DNA of 64,000 nt from Candidatus Omnitrophota bacterium (GTDB taxonomy: Bacteria; Omnitrophota; Gorgyraeia; Pluralincolimonadales; Pluralincolimonadaceae): assembly GCA_030695925.1 (NCBI GenBank), contig JAUYOH010000109.1:32566-96565 (forward strand), given 5' to 3'. The notes beneath the pieces were generated by a model. The model was not told the origin of the DNA and did no database searches. It saw nothing but the letters and a program-made list of their open reading frames with translations. A program made the position numbers and the translations under genes. How positions within the stretch are numbered: position 1 is the first letter of the stretch; the number at the start of each line of letters is the position of its first letter. Below are positions 53,673-64,000 of the stretch, piece after piece.

Positions 53673-54470
53673 TTATCGATGGGTAGCCTCTCCTAATTTT
53701 TTAACATATCTTCCTACGGCATCGAGCAGGTCCTTTCTGCCTGCGTGCTTCTCTATGAGCTTGACCATCGCGGAACCGACAATGACGCCGTCGGCGACCT
53801 TACTGATCTGCCTTACCTGCTCGGGTGTCGATACGCCGAAGCCGACACAAATTGGTTTCTTGGTATATTTTTTTATGATGCGGACGCGTGAGATAATCTC
53901 ATCGGGAAGTTTTGCGCGCGCGCCGGTAATCCCGGTCAATGAGACGTAATAAATAAATCCTTTTGATTTGTTAGAGACCAACTTAATCCGCTCTTTTGTG
54001 CTTGTCGGGCTTAAAAGAAAGATGGTGGAAAACTTTTTGCCTTTTGAGGTAGTTATTAATTCACCGGCTTCCTCAGGAGGCAGGTCAGGGACAATCACCC
54101 CGTCAACGCCGCTCCTCTCACAATCCGAGACGAACTTTTTCAAGCCGTATCTCAATACCGGATTGTAATAAGTCATAAGGACTATCGGGATACCGGTTGA
54201 GACGCGCAAACTACGCACCAGCTTGATTATATCCCGCAATTTCGTGCCGCGCTTAAGCGCCCTCTCGGATGACGCCTGTATTGTAGGGCCGTCGGCTATC
54301 GGGTCGGAGAAAGGGACTCCGAGTTCTATTATATCCGCGTCGCTTTTGGACAATCCAAGGACGAGCCTCTTTGTCGTCGATAAACCGAAATCTCCGGCGG
54401 TTATAAAGACGATGAGCGCCTTTTTTCCTCGCTTCTTTAATTCAGTGAATTTTTTATCTATTCTGTTCAT
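53673..54470 (-). CDS. trpA: Tryptophan synthase alpha chain
   Basis: 265 aa with the motifs [17 protein letters not shown] and GFGVS. It has an ATGA overlap with trpB. Confidence 0.95.
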
Positions 54471-55675
54471 GATTTGTCATTCCCGCGCAAGCGGGAATCC
54501 AGTATCTTCGCCACCATATCGACGTCCTTATCACCCCTGCCCGAAAGGCAGACGATGACGATATCGTTCTTCTTCATCTTGCGCGCTGTCTTGACTAAAT
54601 ACGCGATCGCGTGAGAAGACTCAAGCGCCGGAATGATACCTTCGACTTCGGATAACAACCGGAACGCGTCTAACGCCTCTTTGTCGGTAACAGAGACGTA
54701 TTGTGCCCTGCCGATAGATTTAAAGTAAGAATGCTCCGGTCCTACCCCGGGATAATCAAGGCCTGCCGAGACCGAATGCGCTATCTTTATCTGCCCGTAC
54801 TTATCCTGCAACACATAACTCTTGCTGCCGTGCAGGACGCCCACATCGCCTCTTTCTAATGTCGCCGCGTGCTGACCCGATGACAGCCCGCGTCCCGCCG
54901 CTTCAACGCCGATGAATTTTACCCTTTTATCGTTAAAGAATTCATAAAATAATCCCATTGAATTCGAGCCGCCGCCGACACAGGCCATAAGATAATCGGG
55001 AAGCCTGCCTTCCGATTTAAGGATCTGCCGTTTGGCTTCTTTGCCTATGACCGACTGGAAATCCCTGACCATCATCGGAAAAGGATGCGGCCCGGCGACA
55101 GAGCCGATGCAGTAATGAGTCGTCCTTACGTTCGTGACCCAATCCCTCATCGCCTCATTCATCGCGTCTTTTAAGGTCTTGCTGCCGCTTCCGACGGGCC
55201 TGACTTTTGAGCCCAAGAGGCGCATCCTGAATACGTTAAGCGCCTGCCGCCGCATATCCTCCTCGCCCATAAATATCTCGCACTCAAGCCCGAATAACGC
55301 GGCGACTGTAGCGGTCGCTACACCGTGCTGGCCGGCCCCGGTCTCCGCGATAATGCGTGACTTACCCATCCTTAAAGTAAGAAGCCCTTGTCCTAACGTA
55401 TTGTTTATCTTGTGTGAGCCGGTATGAAGAAGGTCCTCGCGTTTTAAGTATATCTTTGGTCCCTTTAACGCTTTGGTAAGATGTCCGGCATAATAAAGCG
55501 GGCTTGGCCTTCCCGCATAATTAGTGAGGTAGGATTTAAGATCTTCCTTGAACCGGCGGTCCCGCTTGGCCTTATTATACTCGCGCTCTAACTCGTCGAG
55601 CGCGGCCATAAGAGTCTCGGGGACGTATTTACCGCCAAAGATGCCGAAATGCCCCTTCTTATCAGGTAGTTTCAC
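54467..55675 (-). CDS. trpB: Tryptophan synthase beta chain
   Basis: 402 aa with the motifs HTGSHKINN (PLP lysine), GGGSN and CLSGRGDKD. It has a GTG start. The last roughly 9 residues (SRLRGNDKS) are encoded by a palindromic element. Confidence 0.95.
54479..54498. repeat. REP-like palindrome with a GCAA (GNRA) loop at the trpB/trpA junction
   Basis: The sequence attcccgc-gcaa-gcgggaat forms a perfect 8-bp stem. It reads VIPAQAGIQ on the plus strand and DSRLRGN in the trpB frame. This is the only complete copy in the window. Confidence 0.7.
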
Positions 55676-55710
55676 GTCATAACCCCTTTATTTTAACTGA
55701 ATAAAGGTAA

Positions 55711-55739
55711 AGTTTAGCACAGATTATCAGAGTAGTCAA
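55711..55739 (-). promoter_or_regulatory. Candidate promoter of the trpB-led gene array
   Basis: The minus strand reads TTGACT (55739..55734), a 17-nt spacer, then the extended -10 TGcTAAACT (hexamer 55716..55711). It lies in the 86-nt gap upstream of the trpB GTG. Confidence 0.5.
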
Positions 55740-55761
55740 TTGATATTACGAGGAAGGATTG

Positions 55762-56046
55762 TTATTTAGTGAGGATCTCTATCCGGGAATTGCTTTTTTC
55801 TTTGTGCTGAAGAGCGAGGCGCTCGTCGATTATCAAATTGATCTGCTCCTTTAAGGTGTTAGGTGCTACCTTAAAGGATGGGTCATTCTTTAATCTTAAC
55901 GCGAGCGCCTGTTTCAGGTCTTTGTTATATATGGGTTCGCCGTTTACAGTCGCGATTATTTTATCCGCGGGCTTAGTTGCAACTGGCTTTGCCTTTCCGC
56001 AACCAATTAATAAAAGGCCAATTAATATTATTGCCGTAATGCGCAC
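55762..56046 (-). CDS. Small lipoprotein resembling the N-terminal chaperone domain of SurA/PrsA
   Basis: 94 aa. It has a GTG start preceded by AGGAAA and the lipobox LLIGC. The stretch KIIATVNGEPIYNKDLKQAL resembles SurA_N/PrsA N-terminal segments. No PPIase domain is present. Confidence 0.6.
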   Translation of the reverse strand: MRITAIILIGLLLIGCGKAKPVATKPADKIIATVNGEPIYNKDLKQALALRLKNDPSFKVAPNTLKEQINLIIDERLALQHKEKSNSRIEILTK

Positions 56047-56071
56047 TAATTTATTTCCTAAATTTAAGTTG

Positions 56072-59000
56072 TTATGGAACTAGTGGAGGCGCTTCCCAAG
56101 TCCCAGCGCCAACGCCTGTCAATGTCCCGGAATCTGCCCCTGTATATGTGCCACCGGCCTGTCCCGTGATAGCGGCACTATTGACTGTACCGGTGACATC
56201 GGCAAGCCATTGGCCATCACTCCATTGAGAACCCGTCAAGGTGACATTCCCGTTATCCACAGCAACTGACCAGCTGTCTGATGTCGAGCCGGTGTAATTT
56301 CCGTTTATCAACGCCGCCCAAATGCCGCTTAAAGCCTCCGAGGCGCTAGCGTACATACTGATGTCCATCGTAGCGTTAATCGCACCGCCGTCGGTGAAAC
56401 CGCCCGCTCCCTGAAGCAGTGAGGAATATGTCTCTGTTATAGGCACAGATACCATCTGGGCTAATGCCTCGTTATCAAAACCGAGGATGCCAGGATCCAA
56501 CTGCGCTAATTCAATCCATTCACCAACTCCGACTGCCTGCCATGTAGTATCTACTGCTTCATAAGTACCAATGACGTCACCCGTCACTGAACCAACATTA
56601 AATGTGATGAGGTTGCCATCTTGGTCAAATTCCTCAAGGCCGAACCAGACACCTTTAAAATCACCGTCGAGAATCCCATTTTCCCAATCACCGTTTAACG
56701 TTCCTAACCAATAACCATCAGTTCCTTCAAAACCATCCTGTGCCCCACCCATAGCTAATCTGAAAGGCGAATTTGGCTCGGTATAGGTTCCTTCTAAATA
56801 AGCAGCCCAGATGCCCCAGTCTTGTTCTGAGATAATATTAAAAATACCAAGAGCCATTCCCTCAATTGAAACTACCTCAAGTGTTCCACCGCTTACAAAA
56901 CTGCCAAGACCCGTTCCGAAAAACTCACTTTCAATAGGTTCGGATAAAGGATCGATAGCACCCATTTCATTAAATACGCCGATGCTTTCTCCAATCCAGG
57001 TATCGCCACCTTCATCATATGTTCCAAAGACATCGCCTCTAATTAGGCCTACCATATCCTCGTCCGGTATATTTATATAGAGACCGCGTAAAGCGCCACG
57101 GATTTCGCCATTTAACCAGCTACCACCTGTAATTCCAATCCATTCACCATCAGCAGGACCAAACTTTCCGTCTCCATAAATTTCTGCCATCCAAATAGTA
57201 GAATTCTCAGGATTATCATAGGAATTAGGTCCTCCTTGGAGTTTCAAGTCATAGATACCCCAGGGTTGAGCTATCGTTCCATCGTCGATAAAATGAGTAT
57301 CGCCCCAATAAGTTTCACCTTCTATTAAGCTAGTATCACCTTCGGCGAAACCTCCAAAGAGTTCCGCAGTGAAATCGCCAGTCCCAATATTAAAATCAAC
57401 GAAATCTTGAGGGCTGATTCCTAAATCCGCGGCTTGTGCCATCTGAGTAGGAGTTAACGTGCCTTCTGCCATCCACATCTCTAAGGATGGATAGTAATTA
57501 CCTGAGACATCTCCCCTTAATACGCCGGCATTTCCTGATGGGTCCATATATAAAGCTGCTACTGCGCCGTCCATAATTTCATTATTCCATATTCCTGCTG
57601 TAACGCCAGCGAATGCACCACCATCCTGCGTTATATAATCGCTATATACATATGTGTTCCAGAATTTGGGCTGTTCTTCCGATATTCCATACAAATAGTA
57701 TTCACCCATCGCAAGGATTGGGAACGATTCTGCATTCCACCAATTAGGTGTAGTAGAGCCAATTAATCCATATTCTGAGCCGGCCCAATCAGGATATCCC
57801 CCGTCATTATAGTAAAGACTGTCTTCTTCCCAGTAACCGCTGAAGGTAAGCGGCTCTTCGGTGAAAGTTCCTAATGCAATTGCCTCCCAAGTATAATCAT
57901 AATCGGTATCGAAACTCCCAAGGACATTTCCTTCGATTGTGCCGAGAGCAGTTTGGGTTAGATATTGTCCTTCGAGTTCGCCTGCAATCCTTTGTTCTGA
58001 CCACTGAGTGCCTGTAATAGTTGCGAGCCAGTATTCATCATCTAACCCTCTCCATTGGTCTCCACCGAGATTAAGCGTCCAATTATTTGATGTTGAATCA
58101 TCGTAGTATCCGCCAAGTTCAATGTTATATATGCCCCATGGCTCTGGATTGCCTCCTTTGACGAGCCAAGTTGTGTAACTGCCTAAATATCCGTATCCGT
58201 AGTCATTGGATACCTCATATATACTATAATCATTATATATCTCACCGCCGCCTATAGTGTTAAAGCCGCCATTCAAGTAGCCGTCTATATCGTTCCAGTC
58301 GGAATTATAAGAGATTGGATTGTAGCCTTCTGCCCTCTTCGTTGCGGTCATTGAACCGTCTGCCTGCCACATATCAAGTTCAGGATAGTAATCTCCGTCG
58401 AAGGTTCCTTCTAATGTACCTGCCTTGCCTGATGTATCGATATAGAGACTAACTAACATACCCTCTAAAGAATTGGTCCTTCCTGCTATGAAGCCATCAG
58501 GAATTTCGCTTTCATCTGCATAACTTCCATATAAAGAACCCCACCAAGTGATGTAGTCGTCAGGATATGTTTCACCCATAAGAGTTATATCGACTGTTTT
58601 TGTCCCAACCGACGGAAAAGGAGATTCAGTTGCGCCAATTAAGCCATAGTGATAGTCATAGGTCTCTAGATAAACGCCATCCCCATCATCATAGCCATAG
58701 TGATATCTGGCATCTATCTCTGCGCTCCAGGCAAGCGGCTCTTCTGAATATGACCCTATAGTCGTTGCAATCCAGGTCCCCGTAATTCCTCTATTCACAC
58801 CGAATAAATCGCCCTCAATTGTGCCAAGGTTTTCGTACGAAAGATAGTTACCGCTTACATCTCCTCTAATTTCGTTATTTTGCCACGTTCCAGATATATC
58901 GGTAAGCCAGTAAGAATCCCCATCTCCACTATAGTCGGTTCCGCCCATAACTGCAGACCATTCTGTGGGAATTATTAGATTTTCATCTTTATCAAGATAA

Positions 59001-62000
59001 CCCGGATTAATATAATAATTTCCATTTCCTAATTTTATATCGAAGATACCCCAACCTGCATCTTCACCGATAGAGTAACGATACGCATAATCTTGCCACC
59101 TATCCTCATCGAAGTACGGCGCACCGTAGATATAACTTCCTTCATAACCAAAGTTGCCGTATAATCCTCGAATGTCGATGTTGTCCTGATCTATATATCC
59201 ATTTAGATCTCTTGGAGCAATGCCGATATTTTGTGCTAACTCCGTTGGCGTTAATGTGCCTTCGGCTTCCCACATTTCAATACCGGGGTAATAATTACCT
59301 GAGACATCGCCTCTTAGTACGCCGGCATTATATCCTCCGTTACCGTCGGGTGCGATATAAATAGATGCTACAGCACCATCCATAATTTCGTCTTTCCAAA
59401 TACCGCCTGTGTAGCCCCAGAACGCGCCGCCGTCTAATGTTGTATTGTTACTCTCTGGTGCGTTGTAGCTTTGTATCGGTGTGTTCCAAATGTAGCGCTC
59501 TGATTGTTCTCCATCCCAATATTCACCCATTGCAAGGAATTCGAATCCATCTACATTTTGATTCCACCATTCAGGTGTGGTAGAGCCGATGAGCCCATAA
59601 TCTTCGCCAGCCCTTTCAATATCTCCATTATTATTATAGTAGAGACTGTCTTCGCCCCAGTAACCTGAAAAGGTAAGAGGTGTGCCTTCCCAAGTGCCAA
59701 GGCCGACCGCCTGCCAGTCGCCATAACCACCATTATCCTCGTATACGCCGAGGATTTCTCCATCGAGGGTGCCCATCTTTGTGCGAGTTAAGAATGTTCC
59801 GTGCAATTCTGCAGTTATATCGTTCCAAATGCCATTTGTTATATCAGCAATCCAGTAGCCGGAGTCGTTGCTGCCAATGCCGTCGCTATATTCAGGATCG
59901 GATAAAGAGGCATTGTCTGGATCGGGCGGGGTTCCAACGAGATCCGCTAATAACTGCCAAGACGGATCCCATGTGCCGTTTATGGGCGCGCCGTAGTCTT
60001 GATAATCAGAGCCGTTATATGTGCCATTTCCATAGTATTCGATGTAATAGTTGGCTTGGTCTGGCCTATAGTAGCTTAGATAGCCATAGGTGCCGTTGGC
60101 ATAATACCTATAGGAGTAATAGCCGCCGTCTGAGTAATTGTACTGCCCCTCATGATACATGGTCGGATTATAAGCGCCGAAGGAGTCGTTTCCGCCCATC
60201 ACAGCGGACCAAGAGGTATCGGAATTCCGACCAGAGAATTCTCCATCAAAGGTCTGTCCATATATGCCCCAGTTTTGGGCAACCCCACCTTCATAATCTA
60301 CTATGGACATAGTTGTAAGACTATCCCAACCGGTGATCTCTCCGCCGCTGTTGGTAAATGAACCAGCAAGCCTCCCGTCGTCATAGTTAGGCCATACAGA
60401 ATCATATAAATCTTCGGCAGTCACACCTACATCTATAGCAGGTGCCATCCGGACTTTGGTAAGTTCGCCTCCGAGTAGATATCCAACATAATTTGAATAT
60501 GCGCCGGTTAAATTCCCTGATAAAATCCCTGCATTCCCACTGGGATCTATATATAGGGCTTTTACCAAGCCTTTTAACTCGTCATCAGCGCCGATACCTC
60601 CTGTCATGCCGTAGAACGCGCCGCCATCATACGTAGTGTATGTTTCATTAAATGGATCCGCGCTATATAAGGTATCTCCACCGCTAAACCATGTAAATGG
60701 CTCACTGCCATAATTATTGAATCTACCTATTGAAACTAAATCGAAAGGTTCTGCATTCCATAAATCCCCTAAGGTTCCAATCAGGCCTGAGAAATATCCC
60801 CAATTATCGTTATAAATAGAATTATATAGCTGTCCGCTTGAAGTAAGTGTTTCTTCTTCAAACCCGCCGAGGCCTACACCTTCGAAATCAAAAGAAGAGC
60901 TTGGCGTATATGCCCCTAAAATTGTTCCGTAATAAACGCCTAATTTCTCGTAATCAAGATAGGTGCCAAACACATCTATCCGAAGTAAGTCATCTAAATT
61001 ATCTATCCCTTCGAATGCGGAGAAGAAGTAGCCACCGTTATTGTAATTTCCACCTGCTACGCCAATCCAGGTTGATAGATCATCCGGCCTGTCGTATGTT
61101 CCTCTGTGTATCTCTCTCCAGATTCCCCAATCCTCACCCTCTATTTTCTTCATTTCCTTGTAGAATTCGGTATCAAGGTAACCGCCATCAAATGAAACAT
61201 ATAACTCCCCGCCGCCGCTTCCATTAACGATGGCATCGGAAAGATCCTGAGGTAAAACATCGGTTGCGGCCTTTGGAATAATATATAGATCGCCGTCTCC
61301 GCTAAAAATTCCTGCTCCATTCGGACCGGACATATAGCCGAACAAATGTCCGGAAGTTCCAGAAGAATCTATATAAATAAAGGAAAGGGCTCCTTCCCAG
61401 CTGCTTCCCCACGAACCGCCTACCCAACCAAGTAAAGCATTATCTCCAACCTCTATTGCCGGGACCTCACCGAACCACAAACGTCTTTCATTAGGATTGG
61501 AATATGTGCCGGCTATAGTAAAATCTTCCGGGACCGGAGTGCCGGGCCACGGTGATATTGTAAGCGCATCTGTATAACTTGTAAGAGTCGCGCTGAAAGA
61601 GCTGTCCGCGTCTTCCTGAAAAGAGCCATAATTTCCAAACAACCCTGTGAAATTGGCTTGAAGAGTCGGAGTTAAGGTATCTCCTGTAGTAGTTGTGCCA
61701 CCGGTATCGCCATTGCCATCAGTAGGGTTATCATCTGTAATAGGCTTGTCGTCAAAGACCGTCGTATCGCCGCCGGTGTCTCCGCCGGTATCCCCGCCCG
61801 TGTCTTCACCTGTATCTTCCCCGCCTGTATCGCCGCCGGGTGCAGAATATCCCTCACCGCCGCCTTCACCCTCCCATCCTTCCTGCCATTCTGACTGCTG
61901 CTCATCTGACGGCGGAGCAGGAGGCGAAACGTTTCCTTGGTCATCTGCCGAAGAACTGTTTCCGGCAGCTACGGTCTGTATGACTCCTGATACTACGTTT

Positions 62001-63094
62001 TGGACGGTCCCATTTCCACCTTCAAAATACGCAGTAGTTAAACTTGGCAGGATATTAAGGAATAAAATAGTGCCTCGCACGGCCGCGACAGCGGTCGGGG
62101 TCTTTACCTCAAATTTTGAATTGCCCTTTAGTTTCTGGACCTGCGCCCTTATCTTCCCATGGCTGGATTCCAGTAAATTCTCATAATCTCCGGTCTTTAG
62201 ATCCTTCGATAATTTCTGAAGTTTAAGCTCTGAATTTGGTTTCAGATTTATAAGGTTGCCGTTTTCTAACTTGATCTCTATCTTACCGTCATCTTTCGTC
62301 TCTATGACGTCGCCGGCATTAAGGACCTCATTTATCTTCGCGTCATGCCAGGTCAGCGCGCCGCGACTTCTTATCCGCGCGCTTCCTGAAACCTTGACAA
62401 CGATAGCCGTCATATCTTCCGGTTTGGAATATCCTTCAGCAGATAGGGGTTTTCCCTCTTTTATCTTTGCTATCTGTGTGTCCGCCTCGTGGCCCTTTCT
62501 CTCCATCGCAAGAAGAGCTCTGGGAGCTATCGGAGGCTGGTCAGTAGATATAAGAGTCGCATCTCCCGCGGCAACGTCTACAGGCTTCTCGGAGAGCGAA
62601 GTATTGGCCACCGAGACCTTGCCGTCTAACACTACCACACCTGTCGAGGATTTCTGGTAGATAACAAATAAGTCCGTCCCCTTGACGCTACCCGAAGCAT
62701 TCGGGGTGTTGATTATAAAATTGTCCTTCGCGGCCGATTTCGATACTGTAGCCCTTATCTTCCCACGCTCTATATTCAGGACCGCGGCTATCCTTTTTCC
62801 CTGCGCGTCTAACTGGTAATCTTTTATCTCTACACGGGTCTTCTCGGCAAGCTTGACCACGGTATTGTCGGTAAATGTTATCTCGGCTTTAGAGGCGCTC
62901 TTCGTCCTTATAATGTCTCCGACCGAGATTACGGCCCCTTCCTCGGCAGGCCGCGCTTCGCTCTGGCCCGGCTGAAGGATATCTACCTTGCCCTCAATAG
63001 CCGTGACCTTGCCAATTTCTCCCGCAAAGGCGAACGCGCTTGCCATAAGAACCCCGACGGCAAAAACCGTTAACTTTACAATCCGTCTTTTCAT
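56072..63094 (-). CDS. Giant secreted repeat protein with a signal peptide, two FecR domains, a GDTGG linker and about 1,900 aa of W/Y/G/D-rich repeats
   Basis: This is a single uninterrupted ORF. The likely start is ATG 63094 (MKRRIVKL..AFAFA|GE signal peptide), preceded by TAGGAG with an 8-nt spacer. The tracked TTG at 63118 overlaps the OMP stop and has no ribosome-binding site. FecR-like units lie at about 63010-62534 and 62401-61943 (GDIIRTKSASKAEITFTDNTVVKL; GDVIETKDDGKIEIKLENGNLINL). I saw no Cys when reading the translation. I recognised no C-terminal sorting signal. Confidence 0.85.
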   Translation of the reverse strand: MKRRIVKLTVFAVGVLMASAFAFAGEIGKVTAIEGKVDILQPGQSEARPAEEGAVISVGDIIRTKSASKAEITFTDNTVVKLAEKTRVEIKDYQLDAQGKRIAAVLNIERGKIRATVSKSAAKDNFIINTPNASGSVKGTDLFVIYQKSSTGVVVLDGKVSVANTSLSEKPVDVAAGDATLISTDQPPIAPRALLAMERKGHEADTQIAKIKEGKPLSAEGYSKPEDMTAIVVKVSGSARIRSRGALTWHDAKINEVLNAGDVIETKDDGKIEIKLENGNLINLKPNSELKLQKLSKDLKTGDYENLLESSHGKIRAQVQKLKGNSKFEVKTPTAVAAVRGTILFLNILPSLTTAYFEGGNGTVQNVVSGVIQTVAAGNSSSADDQGNVSPPAPPSDEQQSEWQEGWEGEGGGEGYSAPGGDTGGEDTGEDTGGDTGGDTGGDTTVFDDKPITDDNPTDGNGDTGGTTTTGDTLTPTLQANFTGLFGNYGSFQEDADSSFSATLTSYTDALTISPWPGTPVPEDFTIAGTYSNPNERRLWFGEVPAIEVGDNALLGWVGGSWGSSWEGALSFIYIDSSGTSGHLFGYMSGPNGAGIFSGDGDLYIIPKAATDVLPQDLSDAIVNGSGGGELYVSFDGGYLDTEFYKEMKKIEGEDWGIWREIHRGTYDRPDDLSTWIGVAGGNYNNGGYFFSAFEGIDNLDDLLRIDVFGTYLDYEKLGVYYGTILGAYTPSSSFDFEGVGLGGFEEETLTSSGQLYNSIYNDNWGYFSGLIGTLGDLWNAEPFDLVSIGRFNNYGSEPFTWFSGGDTLYSADPFNETYTTYDGGAFYGMTGGIGADDELKGLVKALYIDPSGNAGILSGNLTGAYSNYVGYLLGGELTKVRMAPAIDVGVTAEDLYDSVWPNYDDGRLAGSFTNSGGEITGWDSLTTMSIVDYEGGVAQNWGIYGQTFDGEFSGRNSDTSWSAVMGGNDSFGAYNPTMYHEGQYNYSDGGYYSYRYYANGTYGYLSYYRPDQANYYIEYYGNGTYNGSDYQDYGAPINGTWDPSWQLLADLVGTPPDPDNASLSDPEYSDGIGSNDSGYWIADITNGIWNDITAELHGTFLTRTKMGTLDGEILGVYEDNGGYGDWQAVGLGTWEGTPLTFSGYWGEDSLYYNNNGDIERAGEDYGLIGSTTPEWWNQNVDGFEFLAMGEYWDGEQSERYIWNTPIQSYNAPESNNTTLDGGAFWGYTGGIWKDEIMDGAVASIYIAPDGNGGYNAGVLRGDVSGNYYPGIEMWEAEGTLTPTELAQNIGIAPRDLNGYIDQDNIDIRGLYGNFGYEGSYIYGAPYFDEDRWQDYAYRYSIGEDAGWGIFDIKLGNGNYYINPGYLDKDENLIIPTEWSAVMGGTDYSGDGDSYWLTDISGTWQNNEIRGDVSGNYLSYENLGTIEGDLFGVNRGITGTWIATTIGSYSEEPLAWSAEIDARYHYGYDDGDGVYLETYDYHYGLIGATESPFPSVGTKTVDITLMGETYPDDYITWWGSLYGSYADESEIPDGFIAGRTNSLEGMLVSLYIDTSGKAGTLEGTFDGDYYPELDMWQADGSMTATKRAEGYNPISYNSDWNDIDGYLNGGFNTIGGGEIYNDYSIYEVSNDYGYGYLGSYTTWLVKGGNPEPWGIYNIELGGYYDDSTSNNWTLNLGGDQWRGLDDEYWLATITGTQWSEQRIAGELEGQYLTQTALGTIEGNVLGSFDTDYDYTWEAIALGTFTEEPLTFSGYWEEDSLYYNDGGYPDWAGSEYGLIGSTTPNWWNAESFPILAMGEYYLYGISEEQPKFWNTYVYSDYITQDGGAFAGVTAGIWNNEIMDGAVAALYMDPSGNAGVLRGDVSGNYYPSLEMWMAEGTLTPTQMAQAADLGISPQDFVDFNIGTGDFTAELFGGFAEGDTSLIEGETYWGDTHFIDDGTIAQPWGIYDLKLQGGPNSYDNPENSTIWMAEIYGDGKFGPADGEWIGITGGSWLNGEIRGALRGLYINIPDEDMVGLIRGDVFGTYDEGGDTWIGESIGVFNEMGAIDPLSEPIESEFFGTGLGSFVSGGTLEVVSIEGMALGIFNIISEQDWGIWAAYLEGTYTEPNSPFRLAMGGAQDGFEGTDGYWLGTLNGDWENGILDGDFKGVWFGLEEFDQDGNLITFNVGSVTGDVIGTYEAVDTTWQAVGVGEWIELAQLDPGILGFDNEALAQMVSVPITETYSSLLQGAGGFTDGGAINATMDISMYASASEALSGIWAALINGNYTGSTSDSWSVAVDNGNVTLTGSQWSDGQWLADVTGTVNSAAITGQAGGTYTGADSGTLTGVGAGTWEAPPLVP
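61763..61837 (-). repeat. Tandem acidic Gly/Thr oligopeptide repeat (GGDTGGEDTGEDTGGDTGGDTGGDT) in the giant protein
   Basis: This is a 75-nt degenerate tandem repeat with a period of 12-15 nt. It lies between the FecR region and the repeat body. Its mirror image creates the spurious PPVSPP ORF on the plus strand. Confidence 0.8.
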
Positions 63095-63114
63095 CTGAAG
63101 ATCTCCTATTTTAA

Positions 63115-64000
63115 TCAAAATTTATACTCGACTCCTAAACTGTATATACTCCTGTCATAATCATATATGGCGATATTAGAATGGTCTTTAACGTAGGTGT
63201 ATCTAAATTGCAATTCCGCCGCCTTCCAGAAATTGTACGCCAACATCGAAGATGCAGTAAGAACCTTGTCGTGTCTCTTTACGTTAAATATCGTATTACT
63301 ATTATCGAAATTCTGAAGGAAAGCATCCCCGGCTAAGCTTAACTTGAACTTCTCTAAGAAAGGATACAATACCGACGCGGTAAACCTGTTTCCGAGATAT
63401 TCCCAGTTTATGCCTTCGGTATCTTCTTTATTTATGCCGTAATGCAGGCCGAGGAAACCTTTGTTCTCGGCGAAGAAGAAGAAATATCCGAGCCCTCCGC
63501 TGTAATCATCAGAATTCCTGTCCTCATCCGCGATTGTCGGCGTGCGCGCGTAATCCTTATCCTGATACTTGAAATTACCCTGAAACATATGGTTCTTTCC
63601 GACTATTAAATTAGCCAGGGGGCTTACGCTTATGGTAGTCAGATATTTTTCCCTCCCGACATCCGTATAATTGTATGATGTCGCAACACCAAGCGTGGCC
63701 TTATCAAGATAATAATTCGGAGTGACGCTGACCGTGTGGCTTAAGACGTCATAGGCGCCTATCTTATTCTGATGGGAGAGGTACATCGAATACTGGGGTT
63801 CTATGACCAGCCTCTCGGCGACCTTCTGCCGGTATTGCCCCATAAAAGTAATTACCTCTCTCCAGTCGGATTCATTTGTGATGCCCGTGGCAAGGGTATC
63901 GTCGCCGGGTTTAAGGAGCACATTGGTATCATATTGCCCGGAGACATTGAGCGTCGCCCTGAACGGCCTCTCGGCCTTCTCTTTTCTATTGAGGGCTTCC
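63115..64000 (-). CDS. Outer-membrane beta-barrel protein (5' end beyond the window edge)
   Basis: The frame is open from 64000 down to the TGA at 63115, so the tracked GTG at 63921 is internal. It shows alternating amphipathic beta-strand patterns rich in Y/G/N/D and a C-terminal beta-signal ending in SLGVEYKF. The stop lies 20 nt upstream of the giant-gene ATG. Confidence 0.75.
   Translation of the reverse strand, partial: EALNRKEKAERPFRATLNVSGQYDTNVLLKPGDDTLATGITNESDWREVITFMGQYRQKVAERLVIEPQYSMYLSHQNKIGAYDVLSHTVSVTPNYYLDKATLGVATSYNYTDVGREKYLTTISVSPLANLIVGKNHMFQGNFKYQDKDYARTPTIADEDRNSDDYSGGLGYFFFFAENKGFLGLHYGINKEDTEGINWEYLGNRFTASVLYPFLEKFKLSLAGDAFLQNFDNSNTIFNVKRHDKVLTASSMLAYNFWKAAELQFRYTYVKDHSNIAIYDYDRSIYSLGVEYKF

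Follow-up and report, generated by a model that had tools for sequence, protein, structure and literature searches.

How does a very large Sec-dependent protein, encoded between an outer-membrane protein (OMP) and a small lipoprotein, function in the cell envelope, and is it exported? The question is raised by the end of a 64,000-nt stretch of DNA (the window) from an uncultured Omnitrophota bacterium, where the three genes are co-directional on the minus strand. A preliminary description had taken them for one unit and for a candidate of an undescribed system that exports and anchors a giant surface protein. The features of the locus are:

63115..64000, minus strand: 3' part of the OMP gene, C-terminal 294 codons, cut at the window end (translation)
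63095..63114, minus strand: 20-nt spacer between the OMP gene and the giant gene, with a TAGGAGA ribosome-binding site (sequence read)
63026..63094, minus strand: Sec signal peptide of the giant protein, MKRRIVKLTVFAVGVLMASAFAFA then GEIGK... (translation; cleavage site judged by eye)
61895..63025, minus strand: FecR head made of two FecR domains in tandem, at about aa 30-193 and aa 232-393 (Pfam PF04773, self-BLAST)
61655..61894, minus strand: low-complexity linker at about aa 400-480, rich in Gly, Thr and Asp, with GDTGG repeats (G 27%, T 21%, D 16%)
56444..61654, minus strand: acidic Gly/Asp/Tyr/Trp-rich diverged beta-repeats, about 1,740 aa (self-BLAST, composition, AlphaFold)
56075..56443, minus strand: C-terminal domain of 123 aa, conserved, predicted to have eight strands (AlphaFold, family alignment)
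55762..56046, minus strand: 94-aa lipoprotein, GTG start, lipobox LIGC, mini SurA_N-like (translation, Pfam, ortholog alignment)
55711..55739 (10308-10336 of contig L001), minus strand: weak sigma-70-like site, TTGACT-17-TAAACT, in the interval between the lipoprotein gene and trpB (9/12 match)

Gene layout and composition

The giant gene (ORF 56072-63094, minus strand, ATG at 63094) encodes 2,340 aa and is followed after 25 nt by the lipoprotein gene. Both spacings, the good ribosome-binding site before the giant gene and the ...YSLGVEYKF C-terminus of the OMP were as first described. The promoter-like element that had been placed after the unit is present, but it is weak, and 1.2 sites with 9/12 matches are expected by chance in the stretch that holds it. 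It is likely the downstream boundary of the three-gene unit. A strong promoter-like site (11/12) lies immediately 5' of the OMP gene. The block had also been judged A+T-rich by eye. For the giant gene, compared with the 36 other genes of the window, the clear deviation is in GC3 (42.4% vs 59.2 +/- 4.2%, about 4 SD low), whereas total GC is only mildly low (46.6% vs 49.3 +/- 2.2%).

The outer-membrane protein

We recovered the complete OMP gene, as had been suggested, from contig L001 (positions 1415-2932), which matches the window without a difference along 11,876 nt. It encodes 505 aa: a signal peptide, a TPR domain of about 190 aa (residues ~33-220, Pfam TPR matches) that lies beyond base 64000, and a beta-barrel (224-504) predicted by AlphaFold to have 14 strands (pLDDT 90). 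The modelled combination of TPR and 14-strand barrel is the architecture of Slam/DUF560 proteins. At the sequence level the homology to their family, SlipAM (PF04575), is distant and is reached through orthologs. Those that are 41-52% identical to the OMP pass the SlipAM threshold (barrels 31-42 bits, gathering score 22), with an alignment that is collinear and near full length on the barrels, and 17 of the 26 OMP members match TPR_Slam weakly. Against a Slam reading, the window OMP itself falls below the SlipAM threshold, its best Pfam match being DUF2860 (23.2 bits), and the barrel also resembles BBP2_2/EpsL and DUF2860. The PF04575 dataset, according to its authors, also took in PgaA-type polysaccharide porins (bioRxiv 10.1101/2020.01.20.912956). 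None of the NCBIfam models tested on the OMP passed. Among the surface-display analogies drawn earlier, that with Slam/DUF560 is upheld because of the TPR and 14-strand barrel and of the orthologs above threshold. Domain searches found no TPS domain, POTRA, RTX, autotransporter or PEP-CTERM features, in line with the preliminary description.

The partner proteins

The two FecR domains proposed at the start of the giant protein were recovered by Pfam in two stretches (PF04773, 105.5 bits, E 2e-30) and align with each other (self-BLAST, E 3e-15). The FecR head gave sub-threshold NCBIfam matches to Lsa33, LipL45 and the LapA retention module (the latter with 36.7 bits for a cutoff of 50, E 4e-9). 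The LapA match is consistent with the earlier idea that the head may be a periplasmic anchor. The repeat region is strongly acidic (D+E 15%, K+R 2.8%) and aligns with itself at a smallest offset of about 150 aa and at larger ones of about 300, 390 and 610 aa (self-BLAST). It matched no Pfam family, and its 40 homologs are nearly all FecR-headed. Residues 1741-2340 are predicted to be all-beta, with long meander strands (AlphaFold).

All complete partner homologs begin with a signal peptide, and FecR comes right after it. Some add Big_13, PKD, HYR or TSP3-type domains, which are typical of extracellular proteins. The C-terminal domain (eight strands in the AlphaFold model, pLDDT ~90) is present in 145 representative clusters and can be aligned across Omnitrophota and Syntrophales. 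In 126 of 135 representatives its end lies at most 15 residues from the C-terminus; 66 of 73 long members have a FecR head at the N-terminus. It has no sequence match in Pfam or PDB and no sequence similarity to TbpBBD-type cargo barrels, the latter counting against the Slam reading. We regard it as a candidate targeting or terminal domain. The family has fixed ends and a variable middle: Sec signal, N-terminal FecR head, variable acidic beta-repeats and conserved C-terminal domain. The preliminary description spoke of a giant cargo, but giant size is not essential to the module: partners encoded at OMP loci range from 2,642 down to 256 aa. The smallest in which both end modules were checked (413 aa) consists of signal peptide, FecR and C-terminal domain.

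A conserved gene neighbourhood

We analysed 80 loci from Omnitrophota, Desulfobacterota, Nitrospirota and Nitrospinota, of which 73 were assessable for synteny, a check that the preliminary description had called for. A same-strand FecR-domain gene lies just downstream of the OMP gene in 68 of these 73, within 300 nt in 59. The synteny is near-obligate, and the same order is kept in Syntrophales, with Skp downstream. This pairing of OMP and FecR partner has not been described previously. Conservation extends to the third gene, since the lipoprotein is 51-65% identical to orthologs in matching position. Its reported likeness to SurA/PrsA is borne out by the orthologs: one of 265 aa, in L013, passes SurA_N_3 (31.9 bits, cutoff 27.2), whereas the 94-aa protein itself stays below the cutoff (17.8 bits). 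The alignment indicates that it is an internally deleted form of the 265-aa lipoproteins at the equivalent position elsewhere. It also weakly matches the N-terminus of EpsD. Among the 80 loci, 26 have a SurA_N-like gene and six have Skp, the holdase required for Slam1-mediated translocation of TbpB (PMC9090332).

The initial three-gene picture, which included no signalling, has to be revised. A CHASE2-PP2C sensor gene lies directly upstream of the OMP gene, just outside the window (beyond base 64000). CHASE2 sensor genes, with PP2C or cyclase outputs, occur in 11 of the 26 well-flanked loci and are mostly adjacent; their absence from the other 15 counts against a reading linked to CHASE2. In two loci the genes for the OMP, a short FecR protein and a CHASE2 cyclase are consecutive (L072, with the 413-aa partner, and L050, with a partner of 944 aa). 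LuxR/VpsT-type regulator genes are inserted in some loci. A PilZ gene is found nearby in the Omnitrophota gene block.

A proposed mechanism and its alternatives

Our proposal is that the OMP-FecR module probably serves to display and anchor a giant surface protein, which would also signal inward. The giant protein would cross the inner membrane by Sec export, and its two N-terminal FecR domains would fold in the periplasm. The linker, repeats and C-terminal domain would be held unfolded by holdases, namely the SurA_N-like lipoprotein in the source bacterium and, in its relatives, Skp, a full-length SurA_N-like protein or both. This part would thread the 14-strand barrel of the TPR-bearing OMP, probably with the C-terminus first, and fold outside. 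The folded FecR head would be unable to pass the barrel and would therefore stay in the periplasm as a stopper, tethering the giant protein to the cell. There it may touch the membrane phosphatase encoded next to the OMP, at its periplasmic CHASE2 domain, in which case surface events could be relayed inward. The FecR-CHASE2 operons of other bacteria and the OMP that feeds CHASE2 cyclases in S. meliloti, both cited below, speak for such a link. That the giant protein is translocated, which end enters the barrel first, that FecR anchors it and that FecR touches CHASE2 are all inferred. We give about an even chance to the reading as a whole, i.e., a divergent system resembling type XI secretion (T11SS, Slam/DUF560) with a new class of cargo, and with export, anchoring and CHASE2 contact as proposed. 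Against it, known T11SS are proteobacterial and have much smaller cargo (PMC12282271). The module represents a diverged branch within an OMP superfamily that is already known, and not the wholly undescribed export system first suggested; what would be new is the cargo class.

The main rival, unlikely in our view but to be taken seriously, is a complex that signals across the envelope, with no export. The OMP would take up or sense a signal from outside, as porin or receptor, and the FecR protein would be a wholly periplasmic adaptor between the TPR domain of the OMP and the CHASE2 sensor, its repeats serving as scaffold or binding surface. This would parallel the logic of FecA-FecR, and FecR is a periplasmic signalling domain in classical systems. 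The consecutive trio of L072 and L050 and the LuxR/VpsT-type regulators fit such a complex. FecR-CHASE2 operons are also known elsewhere (PMC5192318, PMC5498481), in Burkholderia and Pseudomonas without such an OMP (PMC5192318), and in S. meliloti the OMP NsrA feeds CHASE2 cyclases, whose NsrA-dependent activation is documented (PMC13001267). However, it is difficult to see how a periplasm would accommodate an acidic beta-repeat region of about 1,860 aa, which in relatives reaches about 3,000 aa. Translocation accounts better for the conserved domain that the partner family carries at the very C-terminus, for the extracellular-type Ig, PKD and HYR domains of homologs and for dedicated holdase genes (Skp, SurA_N-like). 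Moreover, the closest full-length family match of the OMP is a translocon, not a receptor, and the signalling complex would lack its CHASE2 sensor at most well-flanked loci.

A second alternative, which we consider improbable, makes the OMP a porin for exopolysaccharide export, related in type to BcsC/PgaA/PelB or EpsL, and the FecR protein a periplasmic or surface accessory of matrix production. BcsC and PelBC are the top Foldseek matches of the OMP model, and porins of the BcsC/PgaA/PelB class also fuse TPR to an outer-membrane barrel. The weak matches of the OMP to EpsL, BBP2_2, PrsT and PgaA, the EpsD-like N-terminus of the lipoprotein and the PilZ gene point the same way. Yet the EpsL, PrsT and PgaA matches are all far under their cutoffs, and the TPR region spans about 190 aa and not the 400-800 of the much longer arrays in these porins. 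The barrel of the OMP has 14 strands, compared with 16 in PgaA/HmsH homologs (bioRxiv 10.1101/2020.01.20.912956). Other polysaccharide porins of the BcsC/PgaA/PelB class have barrels of 16-18 strands. The FecR protein is the only near-invariant neighbour of the OMP. Porins of this class always come with synthase genes, and no glycosyltransferase, synthase, Wza or Wzx gene was found in any annotated neighbourhood examined.

Least probable is that the beta-rich C-terminal region is itself embedded in the outer membrane as one or more barrels, with the TPR-OMP, Skp and SurA-like proteins as a dedicated assembly pathway instead of a secretion pore: the long antiparallel meander strands of the AlphaFold model (10-17 residues, about eight per 120-150 aa) and the classical role of Skp and SurA in OMP biogenesis would suit it, as would the best Foldseek matches of the 600-residue model (ushers, BamA and LptD), but these are very poor and, because TM-scores are ~0.1, amount to no real fold match, partner C-termini (...WEAPPLVP, ...AGVAK) have no aromatic beta-signal, the repeats are highly acidic, and a single chain with a dozen membrane barrels in tandem is not known.

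Comparison with known systems

The nearest known system that we compared with the module is T11SS/Slam, whose cargo includes TbpB, fHbp, NilC, hemophilin and Pls. Both have a single OMP of about 500 aa with periplasmic TPR domain and 14-strand barrel, an adjacent gene for a Sec-dependent cargo (putative in the module) with a variable "effector" part and a conserved beta-rich C-terminal domain, and a Skp-type holdase; several OMP/cargo pairs are possible in one genome. Unlike the proteobacterial Slam, the module occurs in Omnitrophota, Desulfobacterota, Nitrospirota and Nitrospinota, its OMP in the window scores below SlipAM, and chaperone and CHASE2 sensor genes belong to the locus of the FecR partner. 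Compared with Slam cargo, the partner starts with a FecR head and lacks a lipid anchor, its C-terminal domain shows no sequence relationship with TbpBBD or lipoprotein C, and its size reaches 2,000-3,700 aa.

LapA/MpIBP-type adhesins are also giant, repetitive and acidic surface proteins, and the N-terminal module of the partner, with its sub-threshold likeness to the LapA retention module, would similarly plug or anchor in the OMP. LapA is nonetheless a type I substrate. It lacks a Sec signal and relies on an RTX-type signal at its C-terminus and on a TolC-like pore together with the ABC and MFP partners of that pore, none of which the module has. As in FecA-FecR-FecI, a periplasmic FecR domain would be coupled to an outer-membrane barrel and to a signalling step at the inner membrane, but the module lacks the anti-sigma N-domain, transmembrane helix, ECF sigma gene and TonB-dependent transducer. 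A further comparison is with the FecR-CHASE2 pairs, i.e., COG4254 LysM-FecR with a CHASE2 histidine kinase in Burkholderia and P. aeruginosa (PA4035-36), and smc02177 (FecR) with the CHASE2 cyclase CyaD1 in S. meliloti. There too, the gene of a secreted FecR protein without anti-sigma domain adjoins that of a CHASE2 membrane sensor, with periplasmic CHASE2 and varied output domains. These pairs have LysM instead of the Slam-like OMP, giant repeat extension and C-terminal domain, whereas in the module it is the OMP, and not CHASE2, that is the most constant partner of FecR.

Organisation of the module

The three genes are encoded on the minus strand, and re-reading the sequence confirmed the coordinates, spacings, protein length and end motif reported in the preliminary description:

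63115-63117 (stop codon), minus strand: end of the C-terminal 294 codons of the outer-membrane protein (OMP) gene, product ending ...YSLGVEYKF
20 nt before the ATG at 63094, minus strand: spacer between the OMP gene and the giant gene, with TAGGAGA
63094 (ATG) to 56072, minus strand: giant gene, 2,340 aa
25 nt, minus strand: spacer between the giant gene and the lipoprotein gene
56046-55762, minus strand: lipoprotein gene, 94 aa, GTG start, lipobox LIGC

The full OMP gene, which continues beyond position 64000, was recovered from the Logan contig SRR13727529_1315 (locus L001). This contig matches the window without a difference for 11,876 nt, reaches beyond it, and gives an OMP of 505 aa. A gene for a 632-aa membrane protein with CHASE2 and SpoIIE/PP2C domains lies 85 nt upstream of the OMP gene, outside the window. 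Within this 85-nt gap, at L001:1338-1366 (about 680-710 nt past window position 64000), is the best-matching sigma-70-like site of the region, TTGACA-17-TATATT, which has an upstream TG and agrees with the consensus at 11/12 positions. Hence, the OMP, giant and lipoprotein genes plausibly form a single transcript, as initially suggested. The promoter-like element previously placed after the lipoprotein gene is a weak match (9/12).

The next genes past the lipoprotein gene are trpB and then trpA. The whole block (PilZ, M48 peptidase, helicase, CHASE2-PP2C, OMP, giant gene, lipoprotein) is placed between trpF and trpB and interrupts the trpEGDCF / trpBA operon, likewise in the related Omnitrophota loci L002 and L003.

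The block, with its DEAD/helicase gene, is contained in L087:1-19518, from the same genome, which covers window positions 53673-64000 and continues for about 10 kb outside the window. Relatives vary around it: L002 has additional genes for an M20 peptidase and an MFS transporter ahead of trpB. In L003 and L004, an ORF of 141-174 aa without Pfam match lies on the opposite strand between the CHASE2-PP2C and OMP genes (L003:5770-6294, minus strand), in a gap of 718 nt that measures 85 nt in the genome of the window.

The outer-membrane protein

The OMP combines a periplasmic TPR region with a barrel. Residues ~35-200 are TPR repeats (TPR_2, TPR_16 and TPR_1 of Pfam, E 1e-18 to 1e-14), and the AlphaFold model (30 homologs, pLDDT 90) has 11 helices at residues 33-220 and 14 beta-strands at residues 224-504 according to DSSP. 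Foldseek searches of the PDB matched this model to BcsC and PelBC, which have TPR and barrel, and at the barrel level to the 14-strand OmpG and CymA; no Slam chain was among the sequence and fold matches of the OMP in the PDB. Against PDB sequences the full-length profile matched TPR proteins only, and the barrel-only profile matched nothing.

The preliminary description had proposed a Slam/DUF560-type or two-partner logic for this protein. The window OMP has no match to SlipAM (PF04575, the DUF560 barrel) at E<=1; its best Pfam barrel match is DUF2860 (23.2 bits, slightly over the family cutoff), and BBP2_2 is sub-threshold. Barrel domains from 12 family members with 38-63% identity to the window OMP were scanned as well, and six of these 12 orthologous barrels matched SlipAM. 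The four that we examined singly (41-52% identical to the window barrel) scored 42.3, 36.4, 35.5 and 31.3 bits, for a gathering score of 22 bits, with collinear alignments covering from positions 104-285 (shortest) to 3-282 (longest) of the 288 positions of the model. BBP2_2 matched all 12 barrels and DUF2860 nine of them, chiefly in the C-terminal part of the barrel, and weak TPR_Slam matches were found in 17 of the 26 full-length family members. NCBIfam gave only EpsL, PrsT and PgaA, all far sub-threshold. The architecture thus agrees with the Slam proposal, and the SlipAM threshold is passed by orthologs, not by the window OMP itself. We conclude, from sequence and predicted structure, that the OMP has a Slam architecture and is probably a distant relative of the DUF560 family, with membership at the curated threshold for the orthologs only.

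The two-partner proposal fared differently. TpsB proteins are of the Omp85 type, with 16 strands and POTRA domains, and their TpsA cargo carries a TPS domain at the N-terminus. Here the barrel has 14 strands, the periplasmic part is made of TPR, and there is no POTRA, ShlB or TPS match in Pfam.

The giant protein and its family

The giant protein starts with a Sec signal peptide followed directly by two FecR domains, at residues 30-193 and 232-393 (PF04773, 105.5 bits, Pfam), in agreement with the original annotation. A low-complexity, GDTGG-type linker is found next to a repeat region of ~1,740 aa that is acidic (D+E 15%, K+R 2.8%) and rich in Gly, Asp, Tyr and Trp. The repeats are diverged: self-alignment offsets (smallest ~150 aa, larger ~300, 390 and 610 aa) were obtained by BLAST of fragments against the whole protein, since whole-protein self-BLAST gave the identity match alone. 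AlphaFold predicts residues 1741-2340 to be all-beta, with long meander strands (pLDDT 76). The last 123 residues form a C-terminal domain with eight predicted strands (pLDDT ~90). The cargo of type XI secretion systems (T11SS) has a C-terminal 8-stranded barrel of the TbpBBD or lipoprotein C type; the domain of the giant protein has no sequence match to TbpBBD, to any other Pfam family or to PDB sequences. Foldseek was uninformative for the 600-residue multi-domain C-terminal model (TM-scores of ~0.1 to large membrane barrels).

The FecR head has no match among PDB sequences, and a further homology search with it returned only metagenomic fragments and no model organism. Its sub-threshold NCBIfam matches are to the Leptospira FecR-type proteins Lsa33 and LipL45, and to the LapA-type retention module NF033682 (36.7 bits for a cutoff of 50, E 4e-9, residues 29-94).

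Searching with the repeat region, we found 40 proteins of 1,000-3,200 aa in MAGs of Omnitrophota and Syntrophales. Nearly all have FecR, and some add Big_13, PKD, HYR or related Ig-like domains. All complete members of the family have a signal peptide followed at once by a FecR motif, and a conserved C-terminal module is common to all. The exhaustive search with the C-terminal domain gave 145 representative clusters, where the domain ends at most 15 residues from the C-terminus in 126 of 135 (median 4); 66 of the 73 proteins with at least 800 aa carry the N-terminal FecR head. The partner family therefore keeps both termini constant, with a variable region between them. Among the partners that we inspected at both ends, the smallest (413 aa, locus L072) consists of signal peptide, FecR and C-terminal domain only.

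Conservation of the module across phyla

The OMP family has at least 212 close homologs. Scanning one genome per GTDB species, we identified 183 OMP relatives, and analysed the best 80 of these 183 loci with home-made phmmer queries. These 80 loci are from Omnitrophota, Desulfobacterota ('Deltaproteobacteria', Syntrophales, Desulfobacterales), Nitrospirota/Thermodesulfovibrionales and Nitrospinota, with no cultured organism among them. In 73 loci the sequence continues for 600 nt or more after the OMP gene, and in 68 of these the OMP gene is followed by a same-strand gene encoding a FecR protein with a signal peptide, at a distance of 300 nt or less in 59 of the 73. The pairing of OMP and FecR protein noticed in the window is thus recurrent. 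The complete partners are 256-2,642 aa long.

A SurA_N-like lipoprotein gene (~265 aa) was found somewhere in 26 of the 80 loci, usually immediately 3' of the partner, and a Skp/OmpH gene in six; the Syntrophales locus L005 has a Skp/OmpH gene as well. The lipoprotein of the window had been described as SurA-like. On SurA_N_3 (cutoff 27.2), its 265-aa ortholog in locus L013 passes with 31.9 bits and the 94-aa form reaches 17.8 bits; no rotamase (parvulin PPIase) domain was detected in either. The 94-aa lipoprotein can be aligned to two parts of the 265-aa lipoproteins, their first ~85 residues and their last strand; it lacks the middle 170 residues, and it is kept at the same position in the closest relatives. 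By this alignment, it is an internally deleted form of the longer lipoproteins.

Association with CHASE2 sensors

A CHASE2 gene is present in 11 of the 26 loci (42%) having at least 6 kb on both flanks, usually immediately upstream of the OMP gene or directly after the FecR gene. The output domain is PP2C in some of these genes and an adenylate/guanylate cyclase in others. Pairs of FecR and CHASE2 genes occur repeatedly in bacteria that are not related (PMC5192318, PMC5498481), and CHASE2 cyclases receive their input from an OMP in S. meliloti (PMC13001267). The locus of the window has such a pair (COG4254-type), with a secreted FecR protein and the CHASE2-SpoIIE gene 85 nt upstream of the OMP gene; no LysM domain was found in the giant protein (Pfam). 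The recurring pairs, the 42% adjacency and the S. meliloti case suggest that the FecR head may be the periplasmic partner of CHASE2. According to a 2016 paper, no factors recognised by CHASE2 domains were known (PMC5192318), and the FecR-CHASE2 adjacency provides a testable partner for these sensors. The repetition of this adjacency suggests that the FecR domain serves more widely than in iron signalling, as a general module for periplasmic coupling.

The giant protein differs from FecR-type anti-sigma factors. It has no cytoplasmic anti-sigma domain or transmembrane helix, as the signal peptide is directly followed by FecR, and it scores 14.7 bits on the FecR equivalog PRK09774 (cutoff 385). 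Its neighbours are CHASE2-PP2C, the Slam-like OMP, the lipoprotein and trpBA, not the ECF sigma factor and TonB transducer of Fec-type signalling. Published T11SS co-occurrence tables list FecR only beside ECF sigma-factor (Sigma70_r2/r4) and TonB domains, which we read as the classical Fec-type iron-signalling context.

Other known secretion routes were also set aside. We found no defining domain of two-partner secretion, autotransporters, T1SS or T9SS (Pfam, NCBIfam). For a LapA-type T1SS in particular, the Sec signal is present, RTX gave no match, and no ABC, MFP or TolC genes are among the neighbours. We rejected a link to PEP-CTERM/exosortase, as the PrsT, EpsL and EpsD matches are weak and far below cutoffs, the giant protein lacks a PEP-CTERM tail, and the neighbourhood tables contain no exosortase family match.

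A putative export and anchoring mechanism

Slam1 is a translocon that moves unfolded Sec-exported cargo over the outer membrane, with Skp needed as a holdase (PMC9090332). The module resembles the Slam system: a Slam-like OMP is encoded next to a Sec-dependent partner that ends in a conserved beta domain, and holdase genes are present. It differs from that system by the addition of a fixed N-terminal FecR head. Because it mirrors the Slam logic with this addition, we propose that the repeat region and the C-terminal domain would cross the outer membrane via the OMP and fold outside, while the folded FecR tandem would stay in the periplasm as a stopper, where it may contact the CHASE2 domain. 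We infer translocation, threading direction, anchoring and FecR-CHASE2 contact from sequence and modelled structures. In LapA-type adhesins, an N-terminal retention module acts as a stopper, and we liken the FecR head to it on the basis of this general knowledge and of the sub-threshold match.

The module might instead be a signalling complex without export, which would fit the short FecR partners and the link to CHASE2. Against it stand the repeat region, which is large and acidic, the conserved domain, which is strictly terminal, the extracellular-type domains of relatives and the holdase genes. A polysaccharide porin is a less suitable explanation. Foldseek did rank BcsC and PelBC among the matches and EpsL and PgaA matched weakly, but these scores are very low (NCBIfam, 16-37 bits vs a cutoff of 275 for EpsL, 15-18 bits vs 367 for PgaA), the OMP has 14 strands and a short TPR region (~190 aa) where BcsC/PgaA/PelB porins are expected to have 16-18 strands and a long one, and the annotated neighbourhoods have no synthase gene. 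Finally, the repeats could be membrane-embedded barrels with a dedicated assembly pathway, but the aromatic C-terminal signal is absent and there is no true fold match.

The export reading can be extended to a trans-envelope contact sensor, which we regard as rather improbable in its entirety. The giant protein would be threaded via the Slam-like barrel, its surface repeats would bind a partner cell or substrate, and its FecR head would be a direct ligand or co-receptor of CHASE2, such that binding or pulling at the surface switches the PP2C phosphatase or nucleotide cyclase. If true, this would give CHASE2 a defined input; type XI secretion would no longer be limited to Proteobacteria and would include a mode of anchoring analogous to that of LapA.

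The significance of these results is argued from sequence, synteny and predicted structure. T11SS are restricted to Proteobacteria in the literature consulted; we found no paper with both DUF560 and FecR, and neither FecR nor CHASE2 is mentioned in the Omnitrophota giant-gene papers that we checked. The OMP superfamily was known already; the class of cargo, the phyla concerned and the way the module is coupled to CHASE2 sensors are new. Should the export reading be right, Slam-type (type XI) translocons would reach beyond Proteobacteria and beyond small lipoprotein/hemophore cargo. They would handle surface proteins of several thousand residues in Omnitrophota, Desulfobacterota, Nitrospirota and Nitrospinota, with another recognition and anchoring logic, i.e., the FecR head and the new C-terminal domain. 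Omnitrophota cells are tiny and possibly host-dependent, and the surface protein would then be a candidate factor for attaching one cell to another. A role in contact with partners is hinted at by the related versions that syntrophic Deltaproteobacteria-type lineages carry.

Composition and additional observations

The three-gene block had been described as more A+T-rich than its flanks, which for the giant gene is clear at its third codon positions (GC3 42.4% vs 59.2 +/- 4.2% in the 36 other window genes, ~4 SD below) but only mild for its overall GC (46.6% vs 49.3 +/- 2.2%, ~1.2 SD below). Amino-acid or codon bias of the repeats, low expression and foreign origin are candidate explanations for the low GC3. 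The minus strand carries all 38 kept ORFs of at least 200 aa in the window (1-64000). The GC skew stays negative across the whole window, and the cumulative skew declines steadily; together with the one-strand ORFs, this is the expectation for one replichore with a strong gene-strand bias.

Three MAGs encode two separate OMP/FecR modules each (L015/L032, L035/L054 and L028/L055), which suggests that the system has expanded by paralogy inside single genomes. The OMP and FecR genes of some Desulfobacterota loci are separated by an inserted gene for a LuxR/GerE-type regulator of 223-229 aa that has a VpsT-like receiver domain (L069:11516-12205 and L086:11487-12158).
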